Counted from the stretch's first letter, positions 22,345 through 40,662 are shown. The stretch: 64,000 nt of DNA from a virus (IMGVR_UViG_3300036715_003254:74482-138481); one strand, 5' to 3'. Notes: generated by a model not told the origin, from the sequence alone. Program-made: numbers and translations.

Positions 22345-23271
22345 TTAACCTATTAGATCGTCAAGAAAATCTAAATCGTCATTGACGCTTTTTGTTTCCG
22401 GAGCTTCCTCGACTTTCTTTTTTGTAGGTTTTTCTATAGTAGCTTGTTTTTTAACTCCAATCTCTTTAGGTTTTTCATCTTCATCAAAAGGTACATCATT
22501 ATTTTTAATCTCAGCTCCCTTTACAGTTTTTTGACCTGTTTCAGCAAAAGTCAAAAGGGCTTTCAACTCATTATATGGTTTAAAGTGAGCTGGAGAAATA
22601 AACTCATCCAGTTTGTAACAATTTTTGTTTATAAATTCTACCGCAGCTTCAGTAGATTTGAAAACAGCACTTGCATCAAGAATTGTTGTATCATCATAAT
22701 TAAAGAAGTTATTAGCTTTCTTAATTTGAAGACTAATTGAAGATCCATTCGCTGTAGGATCGAAAAGTTGTTTTGGTTTTACGCCTACTTCTCTCATAGC
22801 TTCTGTTGGATTCATAGCTGCTATGAATTTGTCCATAAGTTTGGTGCCGAATTCCCAGAGGAACACTTTACCGTTGTTTTCCGGACAGCCTGGATCTTTT
22901 ACAACAAGTATGTTAGCTATATACTTGATTTTTCTTGAGTATAGTTTCGCTTTTTCTTGATTACCACTGTTCCATAGTTCTTGCCATTTTTCAGAAGCTG
23001 GACACGGAAGACCTATTGTTTCAGGACTGTCTTGAATGTAGTAAAAGTCTTTACCGTTTCTTGTAAATTTTATTGAGTGATGGAATATTTTGACAAAAGG
23101 TTTAGCGTCTGGACCTGCTGAGTCTGGTAGTAATCTAATTACAGCTGCTCCTGTACCACTTTCATCTTTAGAAAGCTTCCAAAACCTTGAGTCTTTGAAG
23201 TCTTTTTTCTCTCCTGGAAGAGCGTCTTTTTGTAGATTTTGTTGAAGTGTTTCCCACGAAAATTCAAACAT
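22345..23271 (-). CDS. gp32: Single-stranded DNA-binding protein
   Basis: DSRFWKL..D..G.GAAVIRLLP, ANILVVKDP..PENNGKVF, acidic tail; start MFEF at 23271. Confidence 0.95.
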   Translation of the reverse strand: MFEFSWETLQQNLQKDALPGEKKDFKDSRFWKLSKDESGTGAAVIRLLPDSAGPDAKPFVKIFHHSIKFTRNGKDFYYIQDSPETIGLPCPASEKWQELWNSGNQEKAKLYSRKIKYIANILVVKDPGCPENNGKVFLWEFGTKLMDKFIAAMNPTEAMREVGVKPKQLFDPTANGSSISLQIKKANNFFNYDDTTILDASAVFKSTEAAVEFINKNCYKLDEFISPAHFKPYNELKALLTFAETGQKTVKGAEIKNNDVPFDEDEKPKEIGVKKQATIEKPTKKKVEEAPETKSVNDDLDFLDDLIG

Positions 23272-23295
23272 TTTTAATTCCTTTTTAAACGATTT

Positions 23296-23449
23296 GTGAA
23301 CCGCTCCTTCGTAAAAGAAGAGCTTCCTAACTAACAACTTCCAACGAAGTTGAGCACGAAAGGCTTTGTGTTTATAGTCCACAAGGCTAGTTCCTAGCCC
23401 AAACGACTATGATTATATTATATAATCAGTCGATAGCAAAAACAGATAG
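23296..23449 (-). ncRNA. Stand-alone TnpB omega-RNA mini-element #1 in the gp32 leader
   Basis: Closely similar to the 3' end and right end of both tnpB copies, ends TTCAC; own promoter TTGCTA-16-TATAAT; preceded by TTTAT (23450-23454). Confidence 0.8.
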
Positions 23450-23488
23450 ATAAAAACGAACGCCAAATTCTTTAGACTGATTTATTTA

Positions 23489-24190
23489 TCAGTTTTGTTT
23501 TGGTTTCTCAGCTACCAGAACTTCAAAAGTTTCTAGAGTATTTGAAACAAATTTAAAAATCACTTTACCTGACGCATTTCTATGTATAGAAACTCTGTAT
23601 GTTCCTAGAGGAATTTTTTTAAAGTTATCATTGCTCAAAGAAAGCATAACATCTTCTTTCGACTCGCCGTCACATTTAATAGAAAAAGTATTTCCGAGAG
23701 TTTCTGAATCAAGAGAAATTGTTATTTCATCATCAGACGATGAGATTGTGATATTTTCTAGATCTTTAAGAACGCTTGACGCCTTTCTTAGTTTACCCAT
23801 ATCTTCGTCGCTAAGAGTAAACGAAATAATCGGTTCAATAGAATCAACCTTGTCAAATATACTAAAGTTTAGTCTATATTTGTCTAGTAGGTCTAGGTCT
23901 GATGTGTAATATGTGATTTGTGTTGACCTATCAGAAAGAATAAGTTTTGAATCTTCTTGTTTAATTTCCGGATCTTCAAGAAGTTTCACTACTGATAGAA
24001 ATTCGGAAAGTTTTCCGAGCAAACCGAATTCTTCAAACTCTTCAGAGTCGTATCTAGAAAGATCGATTTTGGCCATAATGGTTGAATCTATATCTTTAAT
24101 CCCGAGTATAGGATAAGAAACAACTAGGCTTGAAGAAATATCTTGTAATTTTGACAGGATTGTCAACGAGTTTTTGTTAAGCATTTTCAT
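23489..24190 (-). CDS. gp45: Sliding clamp
   Basis: Size, EFGL..LSEFLSVVKL and KIPLGTYRVSI motifs, replication context. Confidence 0.8.
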   Translation of the reverse strand: MKMLNKNSLTILSKLQDISSSLVVSYPILGIKDIDSTIMAKIDLSRYDSEEFEEFGLLGKLSEFLSVVKLLEDPEIKQEDSKLILSDRSTQITYYTSDLDLLDKYRLNFSIFDKVDSIEPIISFTLSDEDMGKLRKASSVLKDLENITISSSDDEITISLDSETLGNTFSIKCDGESKEDVMLSLSNDNFKKIPLGTYRVSIHRNASGKVIFKFVSNTLETFEVLVAEKPKQN

Positions 24191-24290
24191 CCTTCAAACG
24201 AAATTAAAGTTTTTCGGTCTTACGACAAAATGTATTTTGAAAGCCGAAAACTTTTAACTTCGGTTATTATAGCCGAGAAAAGTTTAACAA

Positions 24291-24794
24291 TTAATACCAA
24301 ACGAAGTATTTTCCTTTTGTAAGCTCTATATAACCGATGAGTTCTTCCTTCATATCAAGAAAGTCTTCTTTGTCTAAAACATAGATAGTCTTTTTGAAAA
24401 TCTTTTTCGCTTCTTCGTCTAGTGTAATGAACTCTTTTTTACCGACTTGAATTTTTGTTTTAAAGATTTTCTCTTTCAAAATTTTCATATCATCATCAGT
24501 CAATTCAGGAAAATCATTTTTGATTTTTGTGAAGTCAACAACGCTTGAGTAGTCTGTTTTTACTGAAGAGATTTTCTCTCTGAATTTTCTCGGCCATTTG
24601 ACACAGTGTGTATCTATAAAAAGAGTTTTCTTCATTCCTTTACCCTTAGAGACATCATAGATTCTTTTGAAATCTACATCTTCTTCTAGCTTATATTTTT
24701 TAGCTAGAACAGTAAAGGTAGCTAAATGAATTCCAAGCTTTTCGCTTAATTCTGATGTAGAAACAAAGTTTTTTCCTAAAGTGTATTGTGTCAT
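24291..24794 (-). CDS. Hypothetical, possible DNA-binding protein
   Basis: ELSEKLGIH HTH-like N-terminus. Confidence 0.5.
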   Translation of the reverse strand: MTQYTLGKNFVSTSELSEKLGIHLATFTVLAKKYKLEEDVDFKRIYDVSKGKGMKKTLFIDTHCVKWPRKFREKISSVKTDYSSVVDFTKIKNDFPELTDDDMKILKEKIFKTKIQVGKKEFITLDEEAKKIFKKTIYVLDKEDFLDMKEELIGYIELTKGKYFVWY

Positions 24795-25036
24795 ATTCTT
24801 CCTTCCTGTTTAAGTTGTAGGATTTTTATGATGTCATTCTTAGTTACATTCAAATCTTTTTCGAAAGACATTTCAAGTTTCCACCCGTATTTTGTTTGAG
24901 AGTATACATAGACAAAACGAGAATGGCGAACTATTTTTAATGTGGTATTATTCGCTGTAAAATAATCATCTTGTTTTTCATCATAACAGCCAGAAAATAG
25001 GAACAATACAATAATAAGAAAGAGTATCCTTTTCAT
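24791..25036 (-). CDS. Lipoprotein
   Basis: Lipobox FSGC. Confidence 0.65.
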   Translation of the reverse strand: MKRILFLIIVLFLFSGCYDEKQDDYFTANNTTLKIVRHSRFVYVYSQTKYGWKLEMSFEKDLNVTKNDIIKILQLKQEGRI

Positions 25037-25488
25037 TCGAATAGTCCTTCTACTCTTCTTCTAGACTCATCTTCAAGTTGTTTTTGAAGTTTTTCACATT
25101 TTTCTTTGTAGAATTTTAATTGATTCTTAGTAGTTTGTAGCTCAAAATCATTAGCAAGAAGTTCGCCTTTATGTTGTTTTTTGATTCTCTCTAAGTCGTA
25201 GAGAGCTTTTTCTACGCTTTCTATAACAGTTTGTCTTCCTTGATTTTTAAGTGAAAGAGATTTATTTTGAGAAGACAAAACTCTAACTTGTTCTTCAAGG
25301 TCTTTTATTCTTTTTTGAGTTTCAAAGTCCACACCAAATAGAGCGTCAATATCAACACCTTTTAGGCTTTCTGAATATTCGAGAATTTTATCTATAAAAA
25401 GGTCCGCATTTCTTTTTATATCAGCTTTTGAAGCTGAAAGTCCTTTAAGAGTTTTTAGGACTTTGTATGCTGTTTTTACATCGTTCAT
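25033..25488 (-). CDS. Coiled-coil hypothetical protein
   Basis: ORF with GGAG RBS and upstream TATAAT promoter. Confidence 0.6.
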   Translation of the reverse strand: MNDVKTAYKVLKTLKGLSASKADIKRNADLFIDKILEYSESLKGVDIDALFGVDFETQKRIKDLEEQVRVLSSQNKSLSLKNQGRQTVIESVEKALYDLERIKKQHKGELLANDFELQTTKNQLKFYKEKCEKLQKQLEDESRRRVEGLFE

Positions 25489-25552
25489 AACGAACTCCTA
25501 AAAAAGATAAAGAATTATACCTTGTCTTTTCTTTAAATAAGCTTAAAGAAAA

Positions 25553-25669
25553 TTATTTTTGATGCGTTTTGAAGTAAGCGGACGCCTCTTCGGAAGTTGA
25601 GAATTTTTTTCCTGACAAATTCAAAACATACGGAGAAGTATCACCAAAATAAGAAAGAGTCAATATAGA
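25553..25669 (-). pseudogene. 3' fragment of an 'EKYLG' family gene disrupted by tnpB insertion
   Basis: SILTLSYFGDTSPYVLNLSGKKFSTSEEASAYFKTHQK* aligns with the family C-terminus (SIRVLKRF...KFPSSAKAIAYYK). Confidence 0.75.
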
Positions 25670-25790
25670 GTGAACTGCCTACTCCTTAAAGGAGTCGGCT
25701 TCCTAACTAACAGCTTCCAGCGAAGCTGAAACACGAAAGGCTTTGCGTTTATATAAGTCCGCAAGGTTGGTTCCCAACCCAAACGACTTC
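25670..25790 (-). ncRNA. omega-RNA scaffold / right end of tnpB copy 1
   Basis: Hairpin series overlapping the tnpB 3' end, ending GGCAGTTCAC. Confidence 0.75.
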
Positions 25791-27112
25791 ATACCTCTAT
25801 ACAATATATGTACTGAAGCTTGATGGTCAGGATTAGTCTGATGACCACAAGCTGTACATATAAATTTGTCTTGTTTAGGTCTATTGTTCTTATCAATATT
25901 ACCACAGTTTAAACAAGTCATAGAAGTATAGGAAGGATCTACTTTTACAAACAATTTGCCATTAAGCGACTGCTTGTATTCAAGCATAGATATAAACTGA
26001 TAGAATGAAGCTCTTAAAATTGATTTATTTAAACCTGCTTTTTGTCTTACATTTTTTCCGTGCTCGACTTCATTTCCTTTAGCAGATTTAGTCATTTGCT
26101 TTAGTTTAAGGTCTTCAACTACTATCAAATCAAATTTGTTTGTTAATCTGGAGGAGATTTGATGATATAGATCCGTTCTTTTATTGATAATTCTTTTTTG
26201 TAGTTTATTTAATTGTTGTTGTGTTTTATTATAGTTTCTCCCTAGTTTGGTTTTTGATTTTTTGTTTTTTAGAATTCTTCTAGACTGCTTTCGCAAAAGA
26301 AGTTTGATTCTTTTGTTATTCAGCATTGCTTTACGATTAGCAGAACCGTTGTTTATTAGATGTCCTGATTCAACCGATACTAAGTTTGGTATCGATTCAA
26401 AGAGAAAATCTACATCGTTTGAAACTGCAAAGTTATAAACATTCATATCTATACCTATACAATTTTCTTCATTCAAATTGTCGATAGATACAGGTTCTAT
26501 TTCTTTTTCAAAAGAAATTCCTATGCTAGCGTAATAACCAGTCGCATCTCTAGATATAACAACAGAAGTTAACTTATATTCTTTTGGAAGTTCTCTATGA
26601 TATCTTAGTTTTATGTTTTGCTTCATCAATTTCAAAATAGCAGTTCTTTTATCTGTTTCTTTAATAGATACTGCTTGATTGTTCCACACAAATGATTGTC
26701 TTACATCTTTACTTGATTTAAACTTTGGAAATCCGATTGATAGCGCTTTTGCTTTTTCTTTTGGAGTTTTTGCGTTTTGTAAAGCTTTATTTCTTTCATT
26801 AACAACATTTTTTGAGAAAGCTCGTTTAGTCGCCTTAAGAAAATTTATTCTAGCTTGTTGAATAACAACGGAAGAAAAAGGAATATTTCTAAGTTTTAAA
26901 GCTCTTTTTATAACTCTGTCGTAAGACGAATCCTTCCTGTATTTTCTATCTGCTTTCTCTAGCTTTCTATTTCTTTCTTGTTCTTTTTGCCATAGATTAA
27001 GACAGATGTTGTAGGCTTGATTATAAACGAACATTTGATGGTCGAGAAGCTTCTTTTGTTCTTCTGTAGGATAGATCTGATATTTATAACCTAGATTTAC
27101 AGTTTTGTTCAT
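25703..27112 (-). CDS. tnpB: RNA-guided endonuclease TnpB (IS200/IS605 family), no tnpA
   Basis: KYQIYPTEEQ HTH, GIDMN (RuvC I), VVEDL (RuvC II), YTSMTCLNCG..CTACG zinc ribbon, NPDHQA (RuvC III). Confidence 0.95.
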   Translation of the reverse strand: MNKTVNLGYKYQIYPTEEQKKLLDHQMFVYNQAYNICLNLWQKEQERNRKLEKADRKYRKDSSYDRVIKRALKLRNIPFSSVVIQQARINFLKATKRAFSKNVVNERNKALQNAKTPKEKAKALSIGFPKFKSSKDVRQSFVWNNQAVSIKETDKRTAILKLMKQNIKLRYHRELPKEYKLTSVVISRDATGYYASIGISFEKEIEPVSIDNLNEENCIGIDMNVYNFAVSNDVDFLFESIPNLVSVESGHLINNGSANRKAMLNNKRIKLLLRKQSRRILKNKKSKTKLGRNYNKTQQQLNKLQKRIINKRTDLYHQISSRLTNKFDLIVVEDLKLKQMTKSAKGNEVEHGKNVRQKAGLNKSILRASFYQFISMLEYKQSLNGKLFVKVDPSYTSMTCLNCGNIDKNNRPKQDKFICTACGHQTNPDHQASVHILYRGMKSFGLGTNLADLYKRKAFRVSASLEAVS

Positions 27113-27254
27113 ACGAGATTAATATTGTTCCTTAATAAGATTAATTATTTATTTGTAATCGAATTTTGTTTGAAATAGGTTCACTAAAGAAAATTTTTAA
27201 TTTAGTTATTATACTATAAAAAAATTTAAATTAAACGAAAATAAAAGAAGACGA

Positions 27255-27480
27255 GATAACTCCACCATCACCTGTAGGACGGCGATATAAACACATTAAA
27301 TTAACATTTAACAATTTTCTGCTTTTGCTATCGACTAACTATAACAAATATGATATAATAATCATAGTCGTTTGGGCTGGGAACCAGCCTTGTGGACTAT
27401 AAACACAAAGCCTTTCGTGCTCAGCTTCATTAGAGAAGCTGTTAGTTAGGAAGTACCGCCGTTACGGCGGTACGGTTTAT
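27255..27480 (+). ncRNA. Stand-alone omega-RNA mini-element #2 (degenerate left end, promoter, scaffold)
   Basis: TGATATAAT extended -10 at 27351-27359, then AGTCGTTTGGGCTGGGAACCAGCC...GGAAGTACCGCCGTTACGGCGGTACGGTTTAT, homologous to the tnpB 3' ends. Confidence 0.8.
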
Positions 27481-27529
27481 ATTCAGAAGTGAGTTTAGAA
27501 ACGCCTAGATATTTTTCGATGTTTTTCAT
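27481..27529 (-). pseudogene. 5' fragment of an 'EKYLG' family gene
   Basis: MKNIEKYLGVSKLTSE with intact family promoter/RBS at 27530-27590. Confidence 0.85.
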
Positions 27530-27698
27530 TTTGAAATCCTTTTTTAATTTCAAAAATTATAGCTAAACTTTTCTTTAAGAAAGCTTAATTCCCGAAAGAT
27601 TTAAATATTTCGGTGTAATCTTTAAGCAAATTTTTAACCGATTTATTGTGGAAGAAAACAATCCGTTATCAATAGAAAGGTCGTCAGAGGAATGACGA

Positions 27699-28601
27699 CT
27701 ATTTTTCGTAATTTTCGATAATCCATTCAAGAGATTTGTATTTGAAACCTGAAGGAACAGTGTCAAAATATCCAGTATAAATTTTGTTAATTATTTCGCC
27801 TTCAGCGATCTCGCTATAAATCGGATCTTTTACAGAGACGCCTTTAGCTTCGAAATGCGCTCTTAACATCTTATAGAGTCTTTCTATCGTCACAATATTT
27901 TCCGGAGCAATAATATCGTATGTTTGCCCCCAATACTCGTGTCGGAAATCATCTTCGACATCTTTAATAGCATATTCGATGCCGAAGATGAAATCTTCAA
28001 CAGAAGTGAACGATCTAAGAGGAGAGAAATTTTGAGACGAAATATGAATTTCACAAACATCATTATTCATCATCTTGTTGTAGAAGTTTGCAAATACGCC
28101 GCTTTCTGGATTTTGATATTTTCCAACTATATTGAAGAGTCTGAACACTATCGCAGGACTGTAAAATGTGTTAAAAATAACAGACTCGGTATATAGTTTA
28201 TTTAGAGCGTAAAAATCTCTTTCGCTAGTAGAAAGAGGTCTTGTATCGTCAAAATGAAGCCCGTCGTAAACTTCAGATGTGCTCGTGAATATGACAGGAA
28301 CTTTAAGTTCTCTTAACTCTGGAATAAGAATTTCTATTAAAAGAGCATTGTTTTTTATGAATGATTCTGGATTATTTTGAATGTATTTCACGCCGACAGA
28401 ACTTGCGAGATTAATAACCATCTCAGCGCCGAATGTTTTGAGATCTATCGGTTTTGTTAAATCATATTTAAAAAATCTGTCTTTATGAGATTCTAAAATA
28501 GGCTCTTCTCTATCAATTAGAACCAACTCGTGTTTGTCTTCTAACGCTTCAACAAGATGTGTTCCTAAAAATCCGCTACTTCCTAAAATCATTATTCGCA
28601 T
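27699..28601 (-). CDS. NAD-dependent epimerase/dehydratase
   Basis: GSSGFLG Rossmann motif, STSEVY, YxxxK, RLFNIVG. Confidence 0.9.
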   Translation of the reverse strand: MRIMILGSSGFLGTHLVEALEDKHELVLIDREEPILESHKDRFFKYDLTKPIDLKTFGAEMVINLASSVGVKYIQNNPESFIKNNALLIEILIPELRELKVPVIFTSTSEVYDGLHFDDTRPLSTSERDFYALNKLYTESVIFNTFYSPAIVFRLFNIVGKYQNPESGVFANFYNKMMNNDVCEIHISSQNFSPLRSFTSVEDFIFGIEYAIKDVEDDFRHEYWGQTYDIIAPENIVTIERLYKMLRAHFEAKGVSVKDPIYSEIAEGEIINKIYTGYFDTVPSGFKYKSLEWIIENYEK

Positions 28602-28742
28602 ATAATTTCCTTTTATTCTTTTGATTAATAGATATTTATACAAATATTTCTATAACGAATATTATTACTGATTTTAGTTTAAAACTACTTTAATTGAATT
28701 CTGTTACACAAAAATTCTAGATTTCAATCCGTATTCTTCAAT

Positions 28743-30365
28743 TTACTGTATATTCACTTCTTTCTCAAAAAGGTCGAATTCTTGTTCTTGATATTCGGCT
28801 AGTCTTTCAAAAAAGTGTTTCAAACAATAATTTTGTTTCTTACCGTAACCACAGTCATCGACAATATCCCAAACTCCGACTTTGTCTTTACTATCGTGTA
28901 GCCTTAGCATACGTCCTATACTTTGAAGAAGTCTTATAGAAGATTTTGTACTTTCTCCTAGTATCAGGTGTCTTAGCTTTTTTATATTTACGCCTGTACT
29001 CATAGTAGCGTAAGAAGCGAATAGTATCGCATTATCGTACTGTTCAAGAATTCTTCTGATATACTCTCTCTGTTTTTCGTCAACAGCACCGGTTACAACG
29101 AAAATTTGAAGTTCTTCAAGAGATTTAACTTTTCCATATACTTCTTTGTATTGGCTTGCGTATTCAGTTCCTGATAGAAGTCTTTTAATTTTAGCCTCAT
29201 CTACTTGATCATTTACATAAATCAGGTCTTTCTTCGATATTATAGCCGAAAGAAGCTCATTCTTAGTCAATTTAAAAATGAATTCAGCAGACTCTCCGAC
29301 TCTTTGTTTAATCGTTTCCTTTACAAGAGGAACTCCGTGATTTTCTACTTTAGAAAAAAGACAAAGAGTATTTCCCTGTTTAGAAATTTTATCAGCAAGC
29401 TTAACTATAAATTTCTTTCGGTTTGAGTATTCATTCAAAAATTGATTTTCTTTTTGATATTCCATTTTTAAAACGGCTTTACAAACATCGTCAGGATATT
29501 TCAAAAATAGAGCATAAATTTCTACAGGAGTAGCAAGACCCATCTCAATCAGTTTCTTAGTAGTCAAATACCTCTTACTTTGTCCTAAAGCGCCCTCAAG
29601 ATACATTTTGCTTATATACTCTTCCGGAAGTGTTCCTGTCAAACCTATTCTGTAAGGTGTATTACTAGCAGATATTACTACGTCTTTCAAACTTTGGGCA
29701 GCACAACCGTGAGCTTCATCTACTAAAATACAATGAATGTCTTCAAACAGCTCTTTTGATTTATAGATTGACTGCCAAGTTGTTATAGTGATAGGCTTCT
29801 CGAAATGTTTTTCTTTTCCAGCACAAATTTGGTGAACATAATTTTCCAAATCTTTAAAGCCGTAATCTCTAAAATCAGAATACATTTGATTCACAAGCAT
29901 AACATTTGGAACAATAAGAACTGTCTTCTTATTCCAAGCCATCATAAACCTACTAATAATGTAGATTACCAAAGATTTACCTGAGCCTGTTGGTAGAAGA
30001 ACGGTCTTTCTTCTCTCATTTAAAGTTTCAAGAACGGCGTCGATTTGATAATCGAACGGTGTCATAGGTATATTAAGAGTCTCTATAAATGAAAGCAATT
30101 TTTCTCTAGTAATAATCGGCTCTGGAAGTGAAATTTTTAGATCGAATTTTTCCGCTAGCCTCTGTTCTAAACCTTTAGGGAATATGATATTTTGATTTTC
30201 ATCTACCATATAGAGTTTTTCTCTACCATCCCATAGTCTTGCTCTAACTCTAGGATGAAACCTGTAATTAGGTATATATGGAGAAAGAAAGTCCATTATG
30301 GCTACTTTCTTGTCCATATCATCTATTACTACACGGCTATAACTTTCATTTACATATTCTATCAA
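28743..30365 (-). CDS. uvsW: DNA helicase UvsW
   Basis: PTGSGKS, TTWQS, DEAH, GLTGT, QSIGRMLR. Confidence 0.95.
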   Translation of the reverse strand: MIEYVNESYSRVVIDDMDKKVAIMDFLSPYIPNYRFHPRVRARLWDGREKLYMVDENQNIIFPKGLEQRLAEKFDLKISLPEPIITREKLLSFIETLNIPMTPFDYQIDAVLETLNERRKTVLLPTGSGKSLVIYIISRFMMAWNKKTVLIVPNVMLVNQMYSDFRDYGFKDLENYVHQICAGKEKHFEKPITITTWQSIYKSKELFEDIHCILVDEAHGCAAQSLKDVVISASNTPYRIGLTGTLPEEYISKMYLEGALGQSKRYLTTKKLIEMGLATPVEIYALFLKYPDDVCKAVLKMEYQKENQFLNEYSNRKKFIVKLADKISKQGNTLCLFSKVENHGVPLVKETIKQRVGESAEFIFKLTKNELLSAIISKKDLIYVNDQVDEAKIKRLLSGTEYASQYKEVYGKVKSLEELQIFVVTGAVDEKQREYIRRILEQYDNAILFASYATMSTGVNIKKLRHLILGESTKSSIRLLQSIGRMLRLHDSKDKVGVWDIVDDCGYGKKQNYCLKHFFERLAEYQEQEFDLFEKEVNIQ

Positions 30366-30811
30366 AACTGCCCCAATTCAATAGCTAATTTTTTTAGTTC
30401 TATCCAATTCTTAATATCAAACCTTGTAGATTCAAGATTCTTTTTCATATCAATAAGCATCTCAATATAGGAAGACAATTCTTTCATCGAAGATTGAATA
30501 GATAAAAGAGAGGAGTCTCTTTCTAGGAATTCCTTCACTTCAGAATTGTTGAGCTTTATATTAAATTCGAATTTATAATAAGAATACCTTAAAGCTTCAG
30601 TCTCCTTATAGTATGTTTCCAATAAGTATAATCTTCTTTTTAGTCTTCCTATAAAGTCAATTATTTTAGCTACAAAAAGAGGAGCTGATTCAACAAATTC
30701 GTCGAATTTCTTTTGTTCAAGAAGAGAGCAAATTTCTTTATTTTTATCTAGAAATTTTTGTACTTGTTCTGATACTATTTCTAGATTCAAAATTTTTTCA
30801 TTTAATGCCAT
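30362..30811 (-). CDS. uvsY: Recombination mediator UvsY-like
   Basis: Position next to uvsW; C-terminal FDIKNWIE motif. Confidence 0.7.
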   Translation of the reverse strand: MALNEKILNLEIVSEQVQKFLDKNKEICSLLEQKKFDEFVESAPLFVAKIIDFIGRLKRRLYLLETYYKETEALRYSYYKFEFNIKLNNSEVKEFLERDSSLLSIQSSMKELSSYIEMLIDMKKNLESTRFDIKNWIELKKLAIELGQF

Positions 30812-32132
30812 CTATCTCTTCTTTCCACATATCTTCTAGGGATTTATCTTTATACTCTTTATATTCTTCAGCAAGCTTCTTTAAGCTTTTTAGAAGCTCT
30901 TCTTGTTTTTCTGGTGTCAAAGACCAAATTGGCATAGAAAGAAGTATATCGGTTTTGTCGGAAGCAGAAGGAAGTAATTCTTCAATCTTATCCACAATAT
31001 ATTGTTTAGATTTTCCATTGACTTCAATTTTTCCTTTTATAATAAGTTCTATGAAACGATATTTAGCTTCTAGTAAATCGACTTCCCTTTTTATTTTTCC
31101 TATTATAGCTTCTTTTCGTTTAAACATATATTCTAGTTTTATAGATATATATCTCTCTAGAATGTCTTCTACACTTTCGAATGTTTCAACTCTATTATGT
31201 TCGTTTAGACAAGTATAGTTTTCAGTTACCTTTTGAATTAGCTTCAAGTCATCAAGAATTTTTTCCTTAGTTTGTTGAGTGAATTTTCTATCACACTTAA
31301 TATGAAATTTGAATGTGTCTTTTTTAGAGTCGCTCAGGTCTGTATAAGACTTTATCACTCCTTTTTCTTCAAGAGTGTTTAGTACCTTCACATATTTTTC
31401 TAGGTCGTAGTTTAAAGGTATTTCTGTAATCATTAGCTCTGTTTGTGACAGAACATCAACCTTACCTATAATAGAGAAAGATTTTTCTCCAGTTTGAATA
31501 ATATCACCTTTAAATCCAGAATAATAAGGAATTAGAAGCGTAGAGTCTTTAGTTCCATCTTTAAGATACTTTTCAATCCATTTCTTCAAGTTTTCTGGGT
31601 TTCTAGGAAGAATTTTTTGAGCATAACCATTACCTATACCTTCAGAGCCGTTAATTAACAAAATTGGTAGTGTTGGAACGAAAAATCTAGGCTCAATTTT
31701 TTCGCCCTCGAATGTTTGTTGAATTAATACATCATTATCTTCCTTCAAGAACAACTTGTCCATAATAGGAGACTTACAGGTAAATATATACCTTGCTTCT
31801 GATGCTTCATTATTATGTCTAAATCCGAAAGAAGCCTCTGGAAGAATAAGATTGATGTTATTTGCTCCAACAAAATCTTGAGCTAAACCTACTATAACAT
31901 CATACATAGATTTTTCGCCGTGTAAATAGGAAGTTTCACCTATTACTTTACTACCTAGAGTCGAAACCTTAATTTTTTCTTTAATATTATTCTTTAACAT
32001 AGTATAAACAACTTTCCTACTTGACGGCTTTAAACCATCAACTACACTAGCGAGTTTCCTATAATTGTCGTAAACTGAAAAGAGTACATAATCATTATCA
32101 AAGAATTCTGTTATTTTTTGAGTTTTCATCAT
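30798..32132 (-). CDS. gp52: Type II topoisomerase, GyrA/ParC-like subunit
   Basis: DGLKPSSRK, YLHGE, ARYIF catalytic Tyr. Confidence 0.95.
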   Translation of the reverse strand: MMKTQKITEFFDNDYVLFSVYDNYRKLASVVDGLKPSSRKVVYTMLKNNIKEKIKVSTLGSKVIGETSYLHGEKSMYDVIVGLAQDFVGANNINLILPEASFGFRHNNEASEARYIFTCKSPIMDKLFLKEDNDVLIQQTFEGEKIEPRFFVPTLPILLINGSEGIGNGYAQKILPRNPENLKKWIEKYLKDGTKDSTLLIPYYSGFKGDIIQTGEKSFSIIGKVDVLSQTELMITEIPLNYDLEKYVKVLNTLEEKGVIKSYTDLSDSKKDTFKFHIKCDRKFTQQTKEKILDDLKLIQKVTENYTCLNEHNRVETFESVEDILERYISIKLEYMFKRKEAIIGKIKREVDLLEAKYRFIELIIKGKIEVNGKSKQYIVDKIEELLPSASDKTDILLSMPIWSLTPEKQEELLKSLKKLAEEYKEYKDKSLEDMWKEEIDGIK

Positions 32133-32144
32133 CTTCCTTAAATA

Positions 32145-33998
32145 TTACATTGCGTTGATATCGAATATTGTCTTATCTACTTCTGACTTTCTCAAATCTG
32201 AGTTCTTACTACCGAACCACAAATCCATTCTTTCCTTTGAGCCTTCATTATACTCTAGAGGGACAATAAACTTTTCAAATCCTCCAGCTTCGGAAAACAT
32301 AGCTTCAAGCTCATTAGGTTTGTTTGAACCAAGACCTTTTTTATAGTCAAAAGTAAGCCCGTGTTTTGGGTTGTTTCTGATAAAATCTACATAATCTTTC
32401 ATCTCTATAAAAAACTCTACAGGTTTATTGCCTTTAATACCAACTATAATAGGTGTTCTTAAATAGCAAATTTTACCATTCAGAAGCATATCAGGATAAA
32501 ACTTTTGACAGAAAACAAGTAGAAGCCCTCTAATTGATATTCCGTCCATATCAGCATCAGTAGCTATTACTATTGAGTCATATTTTTCAGAATTCTGAAT
32601 TGTCATAATATTTTGAAACTCGACATTTTCTCTTATTTTTTGCGCCGATTCTTCAAGAACATTTAATGGCTTTCCTTTAAGAGGGAAGAAACCAGACTTC
32701 TCTCTACCTATAACTTTCGCAATAAGGTTAGTCGCCGAGTCGCCTTCTCCCAAGAACAAATACCTTTTCTCTTTTTGAGCGGAAACATACTTGTTTACCT
32801 TAACTCTTTTAACAACCTTTTCAGTCATACTTTGAAGAGCTTTTCTTTCTTTTAGCTCTTCTTTAATTTTGTGTGTTTCTATAATAGGAAACATTATATC
32901 ATCATTTTTGAAAAGTTTTGTTACTATTTTGTCAAAATCTATTTCACCAAAATATTGTCTTAGCTCTGTTTTAGGATTGTCAAGCTTCTCTTTTGTTTGT
33001 CCGTCCCATTTCTTAGCTTTAAGGTCTTTCATAAGACAAACGATTTGAAGTTTGTTTTTAATATCTCCGTTTTTTATCTCTTTATATTTCTTAGAGACTT
33101 TCTCTCTTAATCCACTTACTATATTTTCCATCAGGTAATCAATATGAGTTCCACCAGAATTTAGTGTAAGACCATCTACTATGGAAAAATGTCTGAAGTC
33201 GTCGAATTCATTCGGAAAAATAGAGAACGAATACTTTCCAAAATTAAACAACTCAAAATTTTCACCGAAAGTTTTATAAAACTCTGTACCTTGAAGTTGA
33301 ATTTTCTTACCATTCAAGGTAAATTTAATTTTCGGGAAAAATAGTGATAGGTAATACAGTCTTTGTTCTATAAGATTAATATGAGTTTGATCAATATACT
33401 CTAGACCAAAGGCTTCTACATTCGGAACGAATGATACTGTTGTGCCTTTCTTAGTTGATTTTTTGACTTCTACTATCGGTTTTGAATCGCCTCCTGCGGA
33501 AGTAAGTGTTAACTGATTTTTTCCGTCAGCCGTTACGCCTATAAACTCTTTAGAAAACACTAGTGTAATAAAAGAGCCTACGCCGTTTGTTCCTCTTAGA
33601 ACGCTATCATCGTCATTATCGAAGTTGCTTCCTGCTCTTGCGTGACTCCAACAAAGTTCTGGAATGTAATATTTTCTTCCGTACTCATCTTCGCCGTATT
33701 CTACTGGAATACCATTTCCATTATCACTTACAATTACTCTTTTTTCATCTATTGTAATATCAATTTTATTTCCAACTATGAAATTATTTCTTTCGGCTTC
33801 GTCTACTGAATTGTCGATTATCTCATTGATGATTTTCAGAAGTCCAGGAACAAAAGAGACTTCTCTCATTGTATGTTTTCCGCCTTCTAGTACATACATC
33901 TCTTTTGTTTCAAGAGTTTTCGAGCCTAGATACATTCCTGAGCGTTGAAATATGTGTTGAGCTTCGGATAGTTTTCTGTGAGTAGGTTTTTTATTCAA
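32145..33998 (-). CDS. gp39: Type II topoisomerase ATPase/TOPRIM subunit (gp39+gp60 uninterrupted)
   Basis: EIIDNSVDE, DNGNGIP, EGDSA, PLKGK, TDADMDG, KGLGS. Confidence 0.95.
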   Translation of the reverse strand: MNKKPTHRKLSEAQHIFQRSGMYLGSKTLETKEMYVLEGGKHTMREVSFVPGLLKIINEIIDNSVDEAERNNFIVGNKIDITIDEKRVIVSDNGNGIPVEYGEDEYGRKYYIPELCWSHARAGSNFDNDDDSVLRGTNGVGSFITLVFSKEFIGVTADGKNQLTLTSAGGDSKPIVEVKKSTKKGTTVSFVPNVEAFGLEYIDQTHINLIEQRLYYLSLFFPKIKFTLNGKKIQLQGTEFYKTFGENFELFNFGKYSFSIFPNEFDDFRHFSIVDGLTLNSGGTHIDYLMENIVSGLREKVSKKYKEIKNGDIKNKLQIVCLMKDLKAKKWDGQTKEKLDNPKTELRQYFGEIDFDKIVTKLFKNDDIMFPIIETHKIKEELKERKALQSMTEKVVKRVKVNKYVSAQKEKRYLFLGEGDSATNLIAKVIGREKSGFFPLKGKPLNVLEESAQKIRENVEFQNIMTIQNSEKYDSIVIATDADMDGISIRGLLLVFCQKFYPDMLLNGKICYLRTPIIVGIKGNKPVEFFIEMKDYVDFIRNNPKHGLTFDYKKGLGSNKPNELEAMFSEAGGFEKFIVPLEYNEGSKERMDLWFGSKNSDLRKSEVDKTIFDINAM

Positions 33999-34107
33999 AC
34001 GACATCCTTTTTGCTTTTTTCCTGTTGTAAACTTTCTTTGATTTAACCGTAGTCTGATTCATCTTAATCTGTCTCTGATGAGAAAGAAGAATATTTAGAT
34101 CTCTCAT
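33991..34107 (-). CDS. Small basic protein (38 aa), not in ORF track
   Basis: MRDLNILLSHQRQIKMNQTTVKSKKVYNRKKAKRMSFE*, with AAGGA RBS and TATAAT promoter. Confidence 0.55.
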   Translation of the reverse strand: MRDLNILLSHQRQIKMNQTTVKSKKVYNRKKAKRMSFE

Positions 34108-34169
34108 TTCAAATTCCTTTTTGAATTTAACTATGAGAGAATTATATCTAAATAAACTTAAAAATTTCT

Positions 34170-35006
34170 TTAAAACATTCTAGAGGCTTTCATAATTTCT
34201 TTTGCGTAATCAAAATTCGGAGTTTTGCAGTATGTGTTTTGTAGTCCTCTAGCTATGGCAAAAAGGTTTGTACCACCGGAATATAATCTAGCATTTCTAG
34301 CAGCTTCTAACACTCTAGATGAGTTGTGAACTTCAAAATACCTAGCAACAGCAGCTTCTATACTAGGAAACCTTTGGACTTTATTAGGGTGTTTAACATC
34401 CATTATTCCCCACCAGTTATTAGCAGCCTTTCCAACCTTGTCAGAACCTAAACCTGTTTCAACTACAGCTTGAGCTAAAGCAAGTTTTACTGGAATTGGA
34501 TGTGCCTTTTTGATTATTTCTTCTTTGTCATCTAGAGAATTAAGACCATATTTCTTCATAAGAGGCTTTACTTCTTCTGGAGACTTAGCAGTTAGTAGCT
34601 TTCTTGAATCTTGTACTGTTTTCAAATTTTCTCTTTTTACTGCCTCTGAAAGTTGTATTACCTTCTTCGCTTGTTCAGGTTTCATTTGATTTAATTTGGA
34701 TTGCGGCGGCGTAGAATAATATATCGGCAAGACTTGTTTTAGCTCATTAATTTTTTTGTCTTTTTCTTGTATAACTTTTTCTTTTTCTTTGATGGTCATT
34801 TCTTTAGCCGATATAACAGCGTTCTTTTCCAAAATGATAGCGGCGCTTTTTGCGTTAAGCGATATAAGACCTACAATAAATGCAGTTAAAACAGAAGCAA
34901 TTAATCCTGAAACTAAGATTATGTTTCTTAATGTTTTCATTGGGTTTGTGTGTAAAGAATATAAAAGAGACTCTTTAGCTCTTTTGATTTTTTTCTTGAA
35001 TGACAT
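34170..35006 (-). CDS. Membrane-anchored GH73/Bax-like glucosaminidase
   Basis: TM helix, coiled coil, LALAQAVVETGLG..NNWWGI, C-terminal Y..(N/D)..Y. Confidence 0.75.
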   Translation of the reverse strand: MSFKKKIKRAKESLLYSLHTNPMKTLRNIILVSGLIASVLTAFIVGLISLNAKSAAIILEKNAVISAKEMTIKEKEKVIQEKDKKINELKQVLPIYYSTPPQSKLNQMKPEQAKKVIQLSEAVKRENLKTVQDSRKLLTAKSPEEVKPLMKKYGLNSLDDKEEIIKKAHPIPVKLALAQAVVETGLGSDKVGKAANNWWGIMDVKHPNKVQRFPSIEAAVARYFEVHNSSRVLEAARNARLYSGGTNLFAIARGLQNTYCKTPNFDYAKEIMKASRMF

Positions 35007-35261
35007 TTCGGCTCTCCTTTCTTTATACAACCAGAAATCTTGAGACTTAACTACAATAAATTTGTCTCGACTGGTTCTTATGTGTTAGGGTGTTCTTCCT
35101 TTTACTCCTTTAAGCAATTATACACATATTTTTATAAGGTAGTATTCTACCAACCACTTTGACGCATTTCCAATTCCTTTAATTTAGATAGATAATCTTA
35201 TCTAATTTTAAATTAAAGAAATCTTAAAAGAAAATCGGCTCATTTAAGAGCCGAGATCCTA

Positions 35262-35681
35262 TCACTTAATTTCTATTTTAGTGATTTCAGGTTTTTTAGG
35301 CTGTTTTGAAACTATTTTCAATCTCAAAACACCGTCGTCCATCTCTGCAGAAATGTTTTCTACTTCTTCAAGAAGCGTTAAAACTCTCTTGAAAGATTTA
35401 CTTGAAGATTGTTTCAAGAAGTATACATAGTCTTCAGAAACCTCTTCTTTTTTAGATTCTCCAGATATAATAATCTTACCTTCTTTCAGCTCGATATTAA
35501 TATCTTCTTTTTTGTAGCCCGCAATAAACAGCTCTACAATAGTTTCTTTCGTTTCTTTGTTTACTTTGATGTCAATAGCCGGAAATTCTTTTTTCGGCAT
35601 TTCTTTTACCGGAAATAGTCTACTTCCATCAAACATAGAATCGAAAAGTTTAAACGGATCTTCAAATCTTTTTTGTAGCAT
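35262..35681 (-). CDS. Small heat-shock protein Hsp20, copy 1
   Basis: FPAIDI, AGYKKEDINI, FKRVLTL, AEMDDGVLRL. Confidence 0.92.
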   Translation of the reverse strand: MLQKRFEDPFKLFDSMFDGSRLFPVKEMPKKEFPAIDIKVNKETKETIVELFIAGYKKEDINIELKEGKIIISGESKKEEVSEDYVYFLKQSSSKSFKRVLTLLEEVENISAEMDDGVLRLKIVSKQPKKPEITKIEIK

Positions 35682-35760
35682 AGTGTTTCTCCTTAAAAAG
35701 CGAGTATTTTTGGACTTACATCAACAACAAAGACCTGACTGTTGAATGCCAAAAATTATT
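35682..35760 (-). promoter_or_regulatory. ROSE-like RNA thermometer upstream of hsp20 copy 1
   Basis: CUCGCU-UUUUA-AGGAG pairing over the SD with a bulged G, preceded by a longer hairpin. Confidence 0.6.
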
Positions 35761-35804
35761 TTATCTATATTTAGTTTAACTATTTACACCAACTTTAGTA
35801 ATAG

Positions 35805-36245
35805 TTATTTATATGATGAATTTTGTTGTTTTTCTAACTGAAGCAATAGTGCTTTTAGTTTTGAAAATTTTGGAAATATTACCAATCTCAAAATATCACC
35901 ATCTAATTTCGCAGAAACCTCTTCAACTTTTTCATTGATCGTCAACACTCTTTTGAAAGTTTTACTTGCAGACTGTTTTAAAATACAAGCACAAGATTCC
36001 GGAAACTTTTCTTTCGCTTTACCTTTTATTATGATTTTATTTCTTTTCACTTTGACTTTAAGTTCTTCTTTTTTAAAGCCTTCAACTTTCAGTTCTACAA
36101 TAGTTTCTTCAGTTTCTTCGTTTACCTTTATATCAATAGGAGGGAATGCTTCCTTCGGTATATCTTTCATTGCGGCGACCTTTTGATATTCGTCAAGCCA
36201 AGAATCAAAAGGAGTAAATGGCTTTTTAGGGTTTTTTTGAGACAT
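35805..36245 (-). CDS. Hsp20, copy 2
   Basis: Paralog of copy 1. Confidence 0.9.
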   Translation of the reverse strand: MSQKNPKKPFTPFDSWLDEYQKVAAMKDIPKEAFPPIDIKVNEETEETIVELKVEGFKKEELKVKVKRNKIIIKGKAKEKFPESCACILKQSASKTFKRVLTINEKVEEVSAKLDGDILRLVIFPKFSKLKALLLQLEKQQNSSYK

Positions 36246-36298
36246 AATTTTCCTTTAAATGAAGTATTTCGGCGCTTAAATGAACCAATTTACTTTGT

Positions 36299-36643
36299 TC
36301 ACTTTAGATTAGATATTTTTGAAACTATTCTCATTTTCAAAACATCGCCTTTTAACTCAGCGAACACTCTTTCTACTTCTTCATAAAGCGTTAGAACTCT
36401 TTTAAAAGTTTTACTTGAAGTTTGTTTGTAGAAGTAAGCATAATCTTCAGGAAGCTCTTTTTCTATTTTTCCAGTTACAATTATTGACTTCCCTTCCACT
36501 CTGATGTCAATATCTTCTCTTCTAAATCCTGTAACAGACAACTCTACGACCGCTTCTCTCTTATCTCCGTATTCTAAAATACTCACAACTGAATATTTCT
36601 TTTCTTGACAATCGATATTTTCCAAACCAACAATTTGAAACAT
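36299..36643 (-). CDS. Hsp20, copy 3
   Basis: TGFRREDIDI..FKRVLTL..GDVLKM. Confidence 0.88.
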   Translation of the reverse strand: MFQIVGLENIDCQEKKYSVVSILEYGDKREAVVELSVTGFRREDIDIRVEGKSIIVTGKIEKELPEDYAYFYKQTSSKTFKRVLTLYEEVERVFAELKGDVLKMRIVSKISNLK

Positions 36644-36659
36644 AAATTCTCCTTTTTAA

Positions 36660-36995
36660 TTAGTAAATTTCTATTTTAGTCATTTTAGGTTTTTTCGCTA
36701 TTCTTGTAAATATTCTCATTTTCAGAATATCATCTTCCAAGTCGGCATAAACCTTTTCTACTTCTTCGTGAAGTGTAAGAACTCTTTTGAAATATTTGAT
36801 TGAAGACTGTTTTAGGAAATACATATTATCGTCTGGAATTTCTTTTTTCACTTCACCTATTATGGTTATTATATTTCCGTATATTTTGATACTAATATCT
36901 TCTCTTTTAAAACCTGTGACAACCATTTCTGCTGCTACTTCTCTAATTCTTCCGTCTTCCAAAATATTACAAAAAATGTATTCATTAGCACTCAT
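36660..36995 (-). CDS. Hsp20, copy 4
   Basis: TGFKREDISI..FKRVLTL..KIEI; start likely MSANEY. Confidence 0.85.
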   Translation of the reverse strand: MSANEYIFCNILEDGRIREVAAEMVVTGFKREDISIKIYGNIITIIGEVKKEIPDDNMYFLKQSSIKYFKRVLTLHEEVEKVYADLEDDILKMRIFTRIAKKPKMTKIEIY

Positions 36996-37059
36996 TTTTA
37001 ATCCTTTCTTGTGGTATAAAATTTTAATATAGTTTAATGTATTTAATACATCAACACCT

Positions 37060-37914
37060 TTACAGCAATGAACCTTGTACATATTTCTTAGTATTGTTCT
37101 TTTTATTTTCTGCTTGTAATTTCAGTTGTAATTTTTCTATTTCTGCTTCAAGTTTAGCTACAGTCTGTTCTTCATCATATACATATTCTGAAAATAGATA
37201 CTTATGGTCTTCTGGTAATACATTATACATAGCAGTTGCTAATTCTCTTATTTCCCACAAAGCAGAAGGACTAGTTCTTAGTTGTAGAAAATTTTGAAGT
37301 GCTCTAGCATTTATAGTATACACTAATTCTGTTTTATATGACTCTATAAGAGCATATTTTGATTTATCGTTTGATATTCCTTCTACTACAAGTTTTCTAA
37401 CTTCTTCTAGACCTCTAATACTAGCCAAATCTACTTCAGCAACACCTGTAATAACAATGTATTTTGATGCTCTCTTAATATGTTCTTCAGATCCATCTAC
37501 AGCTAAGAATGGTTTTTCATTTCTTAACTCTTTCAGAGTATATCTTGTCGATTTTACTGACATTGAAGCTATTCTGTGTCTAGCTAGTTCTTGTAGTAAT
37601 GCTCTACTAACACCAACAATATCAAAGCTATAAACAAGATGTTCTAGTGTAGATGAATGTTTGTTTTTATTTCCAACTCTATCTATTAAAAGTCTATCAT
37701 TTGGACCACATTCAGTAGTGCTTATATACATTTCACTATCACAGTCATCACAATAACCATAACCACTAGGAAAGCTAGATACTATATTAGTACTTCCACA
37801 TTTTACACATGTGTGTGTAGTTACAGTATCAGATTTATCTTGACTTTGCCAACATTTACGTATAGCATAAGAAGCTACCCAAAGTGGTGTATAGTGTAAT
37901 AGAGTAACTTTCAA
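37060..37914 (-). CDS. thyX: FAD-dependent thymidylate synthase with Cys4 insertion
   Basis: HSSTLEH, SRALLQELARHRIASMSVKSTRY, NARALQNFLQLR, ALWEIR. Confidence 0.95.
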   Translation of the reverse strand: MKVTLLHYTPLWVASYAIRKCWQSQDKSDTVTTHTCVKCGSTNIVSSFPSGYGYCDDCDSEMYISTTECGPNDRLLIDRVGNKNKHSSTLEHLVYSFDIVGVSRALLQELARHRIASMSVKSTRYTLKELRNEKPFLAVDGSEEHIKRASKYIVITGVAEVDLASIRGLEEVRKLVVEGISNDKSKYALIESYKTELVYTINARALQNFLQLRTSPSALWEIRELATAMYNVLPEDHKYLFSEYVYDEEQTVAKLEAEIEKLQLKLQAENKKNNTKKYVQGSLL

Positions 37915-38004
37915 AATTTATCCTTTTTATTTTTATTATAACTTTCTTTTGTTTAAATTTATAGTGGTCATTATTATCTTTACACTAGACCAAAGTTTAT
38001 TCTA

Positions 38005-38376
38005 CTATGAAAAATCGCCATAAATGAATGAATAACCTTCATTGTCAAGGAAACAGTTTTCTGCTTGTAGTCTTGCACCTATCTCACCTGCTTCAGCCTC
38101 ACTTTTTATATACTCACAATAGTTCATTTTATTTTTCTGATGTGATGTTACTAGAGATATAAACTCTGTTAGTTTTATTCTTCTTCTATACTCATCAAGT
38201 ATCATAGAATTAGATTTTTGAATATATTTTAGCCAATCCATAAATGATTTAATATCTACATTATCACCTCTAGCTCTTGAGTATCCTTGAAAAGTAAAAG
38301 TCCAACCTTTTGCTGTTTTACCTATATGTAATTCTTCACCTGTTCTTATTGATTTAGCATAATAATTATTACCCAT
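38005..38376 (-). CDS. Hypothetical phage protein
   Basis: MGNNYY..LHIGK..GW.F.F..I.DEY pattern seen in phage proteins. Confidence 0.6.
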   Translation of the reverse strand: MGNNYYAKSIRTGEELHIGKTAKGWTFTFQGYSRARGDNVDIKSFMDWLKYIQKSNSMILDEYRRRIKLTEFISLVTSHQKNKMNYCEYIKSEAEAGEIGARLQAENCFLDNEGYSFIYGDFS

Positions 38377-38391
38377 CTTTGTTCCTTCTTT

Positions 38392-38860: not shown

Positions 38861-38918
38861 TTTATTCCTTTCAAACTTTTATTATAAAAATTATATCTAA
38901 TTAAACCTTAAAGAAACC

Positions 38919-39585: not shown

Positions 39586-39588
39586 ATT

Positions 39589-40586: not shown

Positions 40587-40662
40587 ATTTGAATCTCCCT
40601 TTTTAATTTCGTATATTTTATCTAAAATTTTCTTAGAGAAAGCTTAAAGAGAAAAGAAAAAA

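Follow-up and report, generated by a model that had tools for sequence, protein, structure and literature searches.

Introduction

TnpB is the ancestor of Cas12, and its natural role has so far been tied to the retention of IS200/IS605 elements after their excision by TnpA; its guides are usually 16-20 nt long. The systems closest to the one described here are the IS200/IS605 insertion sequences (IS) of Campylobacterota (IS605, IS606 and ISHp608 type), the palindrome-associated transposable elements (PATEs), and homing by TnpB. According to the preprint of Meers et al. (PMC10055086), which also covers restorative TnpB homing, PATEs frequently carry omegaRNAs whose use depends on a TnpB supplied in trans; a review (PMC13565253) sets out 'non-restorative' homing, independent of TnpA, into plasmids or co-infecting phages, and the passages of it consulted here gave no natural phage example. 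Here we analyze a 64,000-nt stretch of viral DNA (the window), bases 74482-138481 of the single 138,481-bp IMG/VR virus record IMGVR_UViG_3300036715_003254 (linear, estimated 94% complete), which carries two intact tnpB genes, tnpB1 and tnpB2, and protein-less copies of the associated omegaRNA scaffold, which we call minis. Positions without a prefix refer to the window, and those prefixed C1 to the whole-record contig. A first-pass annotation of the window had proposed that the minis are stand-alone omegaRNA genes supplying guides to the two nucleases in trans.

Sequence comparison makes it near certain that the phage pieces derive from a canonical IS200/IS605-family element of Campylobacterota, inserted 3' of TTTAT and ending in TTCAC, and, with the same assurance, that they reside in a T4-like phage without tnpA as three tnpB-right-end cassettes lacking a left end and three PATE-like minis. 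For their function we favor trans-guided, TnpA-independent homing or exclusion between phages by TnpB and the minis, a reading to which we give an even chance. In either event a lytic-type phage that has no transposase and no usable left ends keeps a nuclease with six intact guide modules, and cassette-plus and cassette-minus alleles coexist in the same environments. If the trans guides work, the locus would offer an example from nature of phages homing into or excluding one another by RNA guidance and without TnpA, with guide genes separate from the nuclease gene, a step needed in the transition from TnpB to CRISPR; if they do not, it is still a clear record of IS605/PATE invasion and decay in phage genomes. 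A full-text literature search, with supplements (which may hold PATE lists) outside its scope, returned no report of promoter-fused stand-alone omegaRNA genes in a virulent phage.

The phage pieces share with the Campylobacterota elements (loci L003-L025, L051 and L052) a TnpB that is 41-61% identical, the scaffold (98-118 bits), the TTCAC end, and left-end remnants with TTTATC, an AAAAC-hairpin and a tnpA promoter. The phage differs from those elements: it lacks tnpA, none of its tnpB genes has an adjacent left end, its cassettes stand behind a phage-wide ATAAATA-type motif, and its six copies of the last scaffold hairpin (stem D) all differ in sequence, whereas three copies in one bacterial contig share theirs. 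As in PATEs (PMC10055086; locus L059 here), the minis are protein-less, with a promoter-scaffold junction, an intact right end and a guide usable only by a TnpB encoded elsewhere. They differ from PATEs in that the left-end hairpin is broken (mini2) or deleted, leaving only the promoter part (mini1 and mini3), so that TnpA could not move them; in residing in a virulent-type T4-like phage and not on a bacterial chromosome; and in the head-to-head arrangement of mini2 with a tnpB gene in one insertion. The cut of an element-less allele and its repair from an element-bearing one, as proposed for TnpB homing in PMC10055086 and PMC13565253, would be the same here, where both alleles co-occur; a difference is that the transposon-adjacent motif (TAM) fits only part of the sites. 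The free-standing homing endonucleases of T-even phages (Seg and Mob; PMC13565253) have a nuclease gene between conserved replication genes, as here, and the phage TnpB system would be like them in spreading by marker exclusion or gene conversion in mixed infection, but recognition by the phage TnpB would be through an RNA guide, not protein, with the target set by flanking DNA, and there is no sequence relationship. Finally, as in CRISPR-Cas12 systems and phage-borne CRISPR arrays, a TnpB/Cas12-type RuvC nuclease is predicted to be served by several separately transcribed guides; the phage system differs in having no repeats, array or adaptation genes, a guide fixed by the insertion site, and a full omegaRNA as scaffold.

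The omegaRNA scaffold and its copies

We fetched 25 tnpB loci from Campylobacterota genomes and inspected the 3' ends of 19. All 14 open reading frames (ORFs) tested beside the bacterial tnpB relatives are Y1_Tnp, ten on the same strand as tnpB and four divergent. The left ends read TTTAT(C), 12-14 nt, AGAAAAC, a hairpin and ATGAATTG, then the tnpA promoter, and the presence of TTTAT in eight of nine left-end flanks makes it the probable TAM. On the other side, 18 of the 19 3' ends read ...GTTAGTTAGGAAG, a GC-rich hairpin and G.GGTTCA(C/T), a GGAAG-hairpin-TTCA(C/T) layout, and the homology of independent insertions (pairs L019/L021 and L006/L007) stops directly after TTCAC, which places the right-end boundary there and the guide in the DNA beyond.

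By BLAST and alignment, the phage genome holds six intact copies of this scaffold (117-120 nt; omegaRNA and right end), three at tnpB 3' ends and three protein-less (Table 1). The first-pass annotation had counted four guides for two nucleases; the count rises with mini3 and a third tnpB, tnpB3, both in the record outside the window, the latter cut by the contig start. The two protein-less copies that it had placed at 23296-23449 and 27255-27480 are indeed there, and their ends, 23296 and 27480, are the right-end boundary.

Five helices are supported by RNAalifold and a pair count over 22 aligned sequences. Scaffold cells are paired in 93% of cases, against 72.6% in column shuffles and 31-50% with slid partners, and both sides change in 24 of 30 base pairs, values reached by none of 500 shuffles; the earlier remark that the hairpins vary while keeping their pairing is borne out. 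Stem D is the right-end hairpin and is identical to the left-end hairpin in L014; in mini2, stem D followed by GGTTTATATT scores as terminator-like. Apart from a group I intron, Rfam gave nothing at gathering threshold in the window, and nothing at E<=1 in 23200-27700. Two other accounts of the hairpins were tried. The variable hairpin after GTTAGGAAG is ruled out as the guide, because in each of the six phage copies, as in the bacterial relatives, the element encloses both the hairpin and GGTTCAC. Hairpin-CGGTTCAC is ruled out as a phage-native target motif, only two extra CGGTTCAC sites being present, one of them within a 362-codon frame.

Table 1. Positions of the tnpB genes, scaffold copies, predicted guides and remnants in the phage record.
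Feature	Position	Strand	Description	Evidence
Composite insertion	25670-27475	.	1806 bp: tnpB1 and right end (-), central region, mini2 (+); two outward-facing scaffold arms	X4 contig; in-silico removal
tnpB1	25703-27112	-	Intact, 469 aa	Pfam domains, invariant residues, dN/dS
tnpB2	41090-42499	-	Intact, 469 aa	Pfam domains, invariant residues, dN/dS
tnpB3 fragment with scaffold	C1:1-218		Cut by contig start; outside window	108.8 bits
tnpB1 scaffold/right end	25670-25789	-	Ends TTCAC at 25670	103.6 bits; 29/30 pairs
tnpB2 scaffold/right end	41058-41176	-		98.5 bits
mini1	23296-23452	-	157-nt block: left-end promoter part TTGCTA-16-TATAAT and scaffold 23296-23409	118.1 bits; promoter 10/12
mini2, 5' part	27255-27366	+	Degenerate IS left-end hairpin and tnpA-type promoter TCGACT-17-TATAAT with TG	Alignments; promoter 10/12
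mini2 scaffold	27365-27480	+	Protein-less; last 5 nt TTTAT, not TTCAC	98.7 bits; 29/30 pairs
mini3	C1:820-937	-	Protein-less scaffold; outside window	103.3 bits
Predicted tnpB1 guide	25650-25669	-	TCTATATTGACTCTTTCTTA; also 3' part of split small gene	First 20 nt past right-end boundary
Predicted mini2 guide	27481-27500	+	ATTCAGAAGTGAGTTTAGAA; antisense to conserved 5' codons of split gene	Past boundary
Predicted mini1 guide	23276-23295	-	AAATCGTTTAAAAAGGAATT; over ribosome-binding site of gp32-like single-stranded DNA-binding protein gene	Past boundary
Predicted tnpB2 guide	41038-41057	-		
Split small gene	27476-27529; 25553-25669	-	First 18 codons; other half	Restored ORF
Solo IS left end	~6315-6420	-	TTTATC, GTAAAAC, intact hairpin ACCGTCC/GGACGGT, tnpA promoter TTATAAT; no scaffold after	Alignment; nhmmer bacterial left-end profile E 0.091
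Second solo left-end-like remnant	~56230-56290	+	TTTAT, 12 nt, GAAAAC, hairpin, ATAAAAGC	nhmmer E 0.076
Decayed scaffold relic	12221-12333	-	3' end TTAGGAAGC-hairpin-GTTGTTTAT kept; stems A and C lost	20.2 bits, E 0.056
Right-end terminal remnant	42624-42652	-	TTTACGAAGGAG.AGTTCAC, ~125 nt upstream of tnpB2	12/12 identity with mini1 stem-D 3' arm, by eye

A covariance model, R1, was built from 16 bacterial tnpB-linked copies only and used to search the whole phage genome and related loci. The minis score as high as the tnpB-linked copies, mini1 being the best of all in the phage (Table 1), and show no random decay. Although their cores are 8-14% apart, they keep 28-29 of the 30 pairs; variation among the three touches ten pairs, six of them through double changes, and their two small indels fall at positions that are also variable in bacterial tnpB-linked scaffolds. 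The phage relic at 12221-12333 and two solo copies on a bacterial contig (61 and 30 bits) score low, from which we conclude that unmaintained copies decay and that the three minis have not. Protein-less right-end copies of 30-61 bits are found on bacterial contigs L052 (5838-5966 and 17449-17582) and L066, and those of L052 carry the stem D of the resident tnpB copy.

Promoters and left ends of the minis

In mini1 and mini2 the -10 box TATAAT ends 4 nt and 7 nt, respectively, before GTCGTTTGGG, in line with the first-pass observation of a box a few bases upstream of each. Their promoters are among the three best promoter-like sites in 23200-27700, a region where such sites are common (23 found, against 16.4 +/- 3.6 in shuffles). 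The promoter block aligns with the inner part of nine bacterial left ends, the location of the tnpA promoter, and by this alignment the minis owe their promoters to the IS left end: the tnpA promoter joins the scaffold directly at its first base. The boxes first described as phage-type are thus present, but those of the minis come from the insertion sequence. In view of the same alignment, a T4-type promoter/stem-loop (PeSL-like) cassette was given up as a reading of the minis' 5' block.

An intact PATE in a Campylobacter genome (L059; 127 bits) has the equivalent layout: TTTATC, a left-end hairpin, ...ATATGATATAAT, 8 nt, then AAGTCGTTTGGG and the scaffold, with no tnpB within 1.5 kb. The ATATGATATAAT-N8-AAGTCGTTTGGG junction is common to it and the phage minis. 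Together with the left-end alignment, this layout indicates that the minis are PATE-like internal-deletion derivatives, in which the tnpA promoter would directly drive the predicted omegaRNA.

The two ends of the element have fared differently in the phage: all six right-end scaffolds are intact, and the left-end hairpin is absent beside the tnpB genes, mini1 and mini3 and broken in mini2. No left end lies beside tnpB1 or tnpB2, as first reported, the upstream homology of the two copies ending at the start codon except for ATAAATA at -40; the window does, however, hold two solo left ends (Table 1) and the degenerate one within 27255-27480. The latter was not recovered by the nhmmer bacterial profile at E<=10 and is visible only through alignment with the solo left end at 6315-6420.

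The tnpB genes

TnpB1 and TnpB2 (86% identical) both match HTH_OrfB_IS605, OrfB_IS605 and Cas12f1-like_TNB above the Pfam cut-offs. D222, E333 and D429, which from the motif context we take to be the RuvC catalytic triad, and C400, C403, C419 and C422, presumably the zinc-finger residues, are invariant in an alignment of 25 proteins, so the earlier description of two full-length genes with D/E/D residues stands; with these columns kept, the phage TnpBs do not appear to be nuclease-dead forms of TldR type. Between tnpB1 and tnpB2, dN/dS is 0.17 at a dS of 0.47, which implies a long divergence under purifying selection. The tnpB3 fragment encodes residues 409-469 (C1:1-183) and is 97% identical to tnpB1. 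As the contig starts inside it, the assembly probably broke at this repeat, and the missing ~6% of the genome may hold the remainder.

In a quick tree, the phage TnpB copies and two proteins of related large contigs, P0082 and P0110, form one clade (SH-aLRT 100). These two proteins are 83-84% identical to the phage TnpB, and beyond about residue 311 both run out of frame into the same tail, owing to a frameshift that they share or perhaps to a sequencing artefact at a run of A. Next closest to the phage TnpB are proteins of 69% identity, and named Aliarcobacter proteins reach 60-61%.

No tnpA, whether Y1 (PF01797) or serine (PF00239), was detected at E<=1 in the whole 138,481-bp record, which extends the absence first noted for the window; given the 94% completeness, a copy beyond the contig start is possible. 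Lacking a Y1 tnpA and a paired left end, the phage tnpB loci are not autonomous IS200/IS605 elements. TATAAT occurs at -101 and -63 upstream of tnpB1 and tnpB2, and because this hexamer appears about once per 900 nt per strand it is weak promoter evidence, contrary to the first-pass description. An (A)AATAAATAAT motif lies ~40 nt before several start codons, including tnpB1 and tnpB2 (upstream of 27112 and 42499), C1:64453 and gene 32 of the relative L028 (~9945-9960). This motif resembles a T4 late-type promoter.

Occupied and empty alleles

Contigs of four DNA metagenome runs, which contain 76-88% of the region's words, were mapped to 23000-42900. Alleles lacking the cassettes, which a homing role had led the first-pass annotation to expect in related phages, are present for mini1, for tnpB1 with mini2, and for tnpB2. 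In each of three of the four runs one contig skips exactly 23296-23452, with 24 other letters instead; mini1 sits between the clamp gene and gene 32, and in the nearest relative, L028, whose gp32 is 66% identical, the spacer between these genes is ~70 nt and has no mini1. For tnpB2, a contig joins 42588 to 40939 with ~120 other nt.

For tnpB1 and mini2, a contig of one run (X4) joins 25669 to 27476, its shorter side being 30 nt. When 25670-27475 is taken out in silico, a 56-codon ORF reappears, joined exactly behind codon 18, and its match to paralogues spans residues 1-56 (37.5% identity, E 5e-7). The skip in the contig and the restored frame together indicate that tnpB1 and mini2 are one insertion splitting a small multi-copy phage gene.

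The restored ORF is matched at at least nine places in the genome. The family has a conserved N-terminal stretch of ~18 residues and includes members at 27476-27529, 40296-40586, 40663-40965, 42667-42948, 43025-43339 and ~47100, among others; two of its members hit phrog_4655. While tnpB1 and mini2 split one member, tnpB2 sits among others. Further contigs join 42900 to 27504 (19 other letters) in all four runs and 27588 to 40659 (13 other letters) in two; the regions concerned are 27504-27588, 40659-40939 and 42588-42900, and these joins suggest another gene order, or a 13-kb difference, in a co-occurring haplotype. Another X4 contig skips 3194 nt (25547-28742), taking tnpB1, mini2 and a nucleotide-sugar epimerase gene together.

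Predicted guides and the probable TAM

The mini2 guide matches exactly at one place, its own site, and with 1-2 mismatches in 16 at four further places, all in paralogues of the split gene; for the other five guides, no convincing second target was found at <=3 mismatches in 16 nt in the genome and the fetched loci. The DNA beside each guide match in the phage's own genome is TTCAC and not the TAM, with the exception of mini2, where it is TTTAT. The 5' flank of mini1 ends in TTTATC (the TAM and the first left-end base), followed by TA and the promoter block, so that mini1 looks like a canonical insertion 3' of the TAM; with TTTAT as the TAM, TnpB should be able to cut the clean empty site predicted for it. 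Where the 1806-bp block is absent, TTTAT stands directly before the mini2 guide match and ATAAA before that of tnpB1; under the same assumption only the stand-alone mini2 guide could address this allele. As evidence for homing, the fit of TAM and guides would seem to cut both ways.

Proposed homing or exclusion and alternative explanations

In the mechanism that we favor, each scaffold would be transcribed with ~16-20 nt of phage DNA past TTCAC as its guide, and the mini RNAs would be loaded in trans by the phage TnpB proteins. During mixed infection the complex could cut a relative's cassette-less allele where TTTAT and the guide match are contiguous, whereupon T4-type recombinational repair would copy the cassette in ('non-restorative' homing) or the rival genome would be lost. 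In the tnpB1-mini2 block, the two scaffolds would read outward into both halves of the split gene. Homing or exclusion is favored because the ends are asymmetric, tnpB is under purifying selection, the minis and a bacterial PATE have the promoter-scaffold fusion in common, and occupied and empty alleles coexist. With respect to the trans guides first proposed for this locus, promoter-fused modules are intact without a protein, and their guides would be usable only by a TnpB elsewhere; simple homing is hampered by the TAM misfits, and the idea that PATE omegaRNAs depend on a TnpB in trans is already present in PMC10055086. A bolder version, which we think rather unlikely, is a drive with several guides and no transposase, in which promoter-omegaRNA cassettes scattered over the genome, including one in the gene 32 leader, would be loaded in trans by two or three paralogous TnpBs, marking several loci at once and being copied into or excluding co-infecting relatives, with tnpB1 and mini2 as a self-contained two-guide homing unit. 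Such a drive would bridge, as a natural intermediate, the fixed-guide nuclease of a transposon and a Cas12-like nuclease with separately encoded guides.

Several observations weigh against homing or exclusion. The TAM TTTAT comes from bacterial flanks and not from these proteins. The observed mini1-less allele is not a clean empty site: AAAAT precedes a perfect match to the guide, and the allele has 24 extra nt and a near-duplicate of the target. The allele without the composite block is known from a single contig, and ATAAA at its tnpB1 guide match does not fit the TAM. The TTTAT beside mini2 belongs to codons of the split gene and is kept in the occupied allele, so that the guide would match, and TnpB cleave, its own locus unless the terminator-like stem D and U-tract end the RNA before the guide; stem D and GGTTTATATT might then leave the mini2 RNA without one. 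In stem D, mini1 is similar to tnpB3 and mini2 to tnpB2, and an A-U/G-C polymorphism of stem A is common to the mini and tnpB-linked classes; this mosaic pattern suggests that the copies exchange sequence, by which compensated stems could be imported, and the intactness of the minis could stem from youth or from gene conversion among the six copies. The frameshifted tnpB of P0082 and P0110 implies that the nuclease is dispensable in some lineages. Lastly, mini1 and mini3 lie directly upstream of same-strand ORFs, and their promoters may simply drive those genes.

Alternatively, the pieces could be passive debris of repeated IS605/PATE invasions, moved by host TnpA on replicating phage single-stranded DNA, with minis that are young or refreshed by recombination and no role for the phage or its tnpB; we regard this as possible, though short of probable. 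Every stage of decay is present in the genome (solo left ends, a right-end remnant and the 20-bit relic), a bacterium carries an equivalent PATE (L059), and the mosaic stem-D similarities, the frameshifted tnpB of related phages and the poor TAM fit at two of the three empty alleles are all what debris would leave. It accounts less readily for minis that are 8-14% apart in the core and yet hold 28-29 of 30 pairs with six double changes, for left-end hairpins lost or broken while six right-end scaffolds are intact, and for a tnpB dN/dS of 0.17 across a dS of 0.47 with no transposase to serve. Moreover, mini1, mini3 and the tnpB cassettes occupy separate loci although they are without the left-end hairpin that TnpA requires.

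It is quite doubtful that the minis were exapted as a mobile promoter or structured leader for the gene downstream, the gp32-like single-stranded DNA-binding protein gene for mini1 and a 28-codon ORF for mini3, with no guide function. The placement would suit such a role: mini1 stops 24 nt short of the gp32 start, 22 nt separate mini3 from an ATG that has a GAGGAG ribosome-binding site, both minis are on the strand of the gene with no terminator between, and the insertion of mini1 moves an older ATAAATAA-type motif ~200 nt from gene 32. However, mini2 faces no intact gene and runs antisense into the stump of the split one, a folded 117-nt scaffold is unnecessary for a promoter, and mini1-less alleles and relatives express gene 32 from a spacer of ~70-84 nt.

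Less likely still, mini2 could be a cis-acting end, its inverted scaffold arm giving the tnpB1 strand another hairpin through which a host Y1 transposase could move the 1806-bp block as a unit. Inverted scaffold arms bound the block on both sides, one contig lacks it as a whole, and a hairpin read on the opposite strand is again a hairpin with an identical stem; yet the two stem-D sequences differ (identity 0.39), the left arm is without the spacer, AGAAAAC box and TTTAT placement of the nine bacterial left ends, and such a partner exists at only one of the three tnpB copies. A TldR-type regulator, in which TnpB-omegaRNA binds DNA or a nascent leader uncut and controls neighbors such as gene 32, would place the mini1 and mini3 guides over ribosome-binding sites, as they are, and has phage-borne TnpB-derived precedents in the literature, but is highly improbable given the invariant D/E/D and zinc-finger columns and the TTCAC, not TAM, that adjoins guide matches in the phage's own genome.

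Phage setting and minor observations

The phage genome has a GC content of 32%, and its topoisomerase II large subunit is 36% identical to T4-like phage counterparts. The locus lies inside a T4-type replication module with primase, exonuclease, gp32-like single-stranded DNA-binding protein, sliding clamp and helicase genes; the single-stranded DNA-binding protein gene next to mini1 is phrog_224 (E 9e-68). No close relative of the phage was matched in INPHARED by megablast, and a strict scaffold pattern had no match in IMG/VR, the window's own record possibly lying outside these scans. A promoter-scaffold junction pattern gave a single chance match in the viral scan, without a scaffold, and model R1 found no scaffold in 18 related T4-like loci identified through gp32. 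With a looser scaffold pattern, all five viral matches in IMG/VR were tnpB-linked, on contigs of 34-38% GC with a TnpB ~42% identical. A group I catalytic intron (Rfam RF00028, 85 bits) at 12403-12679 on the plus strand has two neighbors, the decayed scaffold (12221-12333) and a 386-codon ORF (11081-12241), whose end it lies next to.

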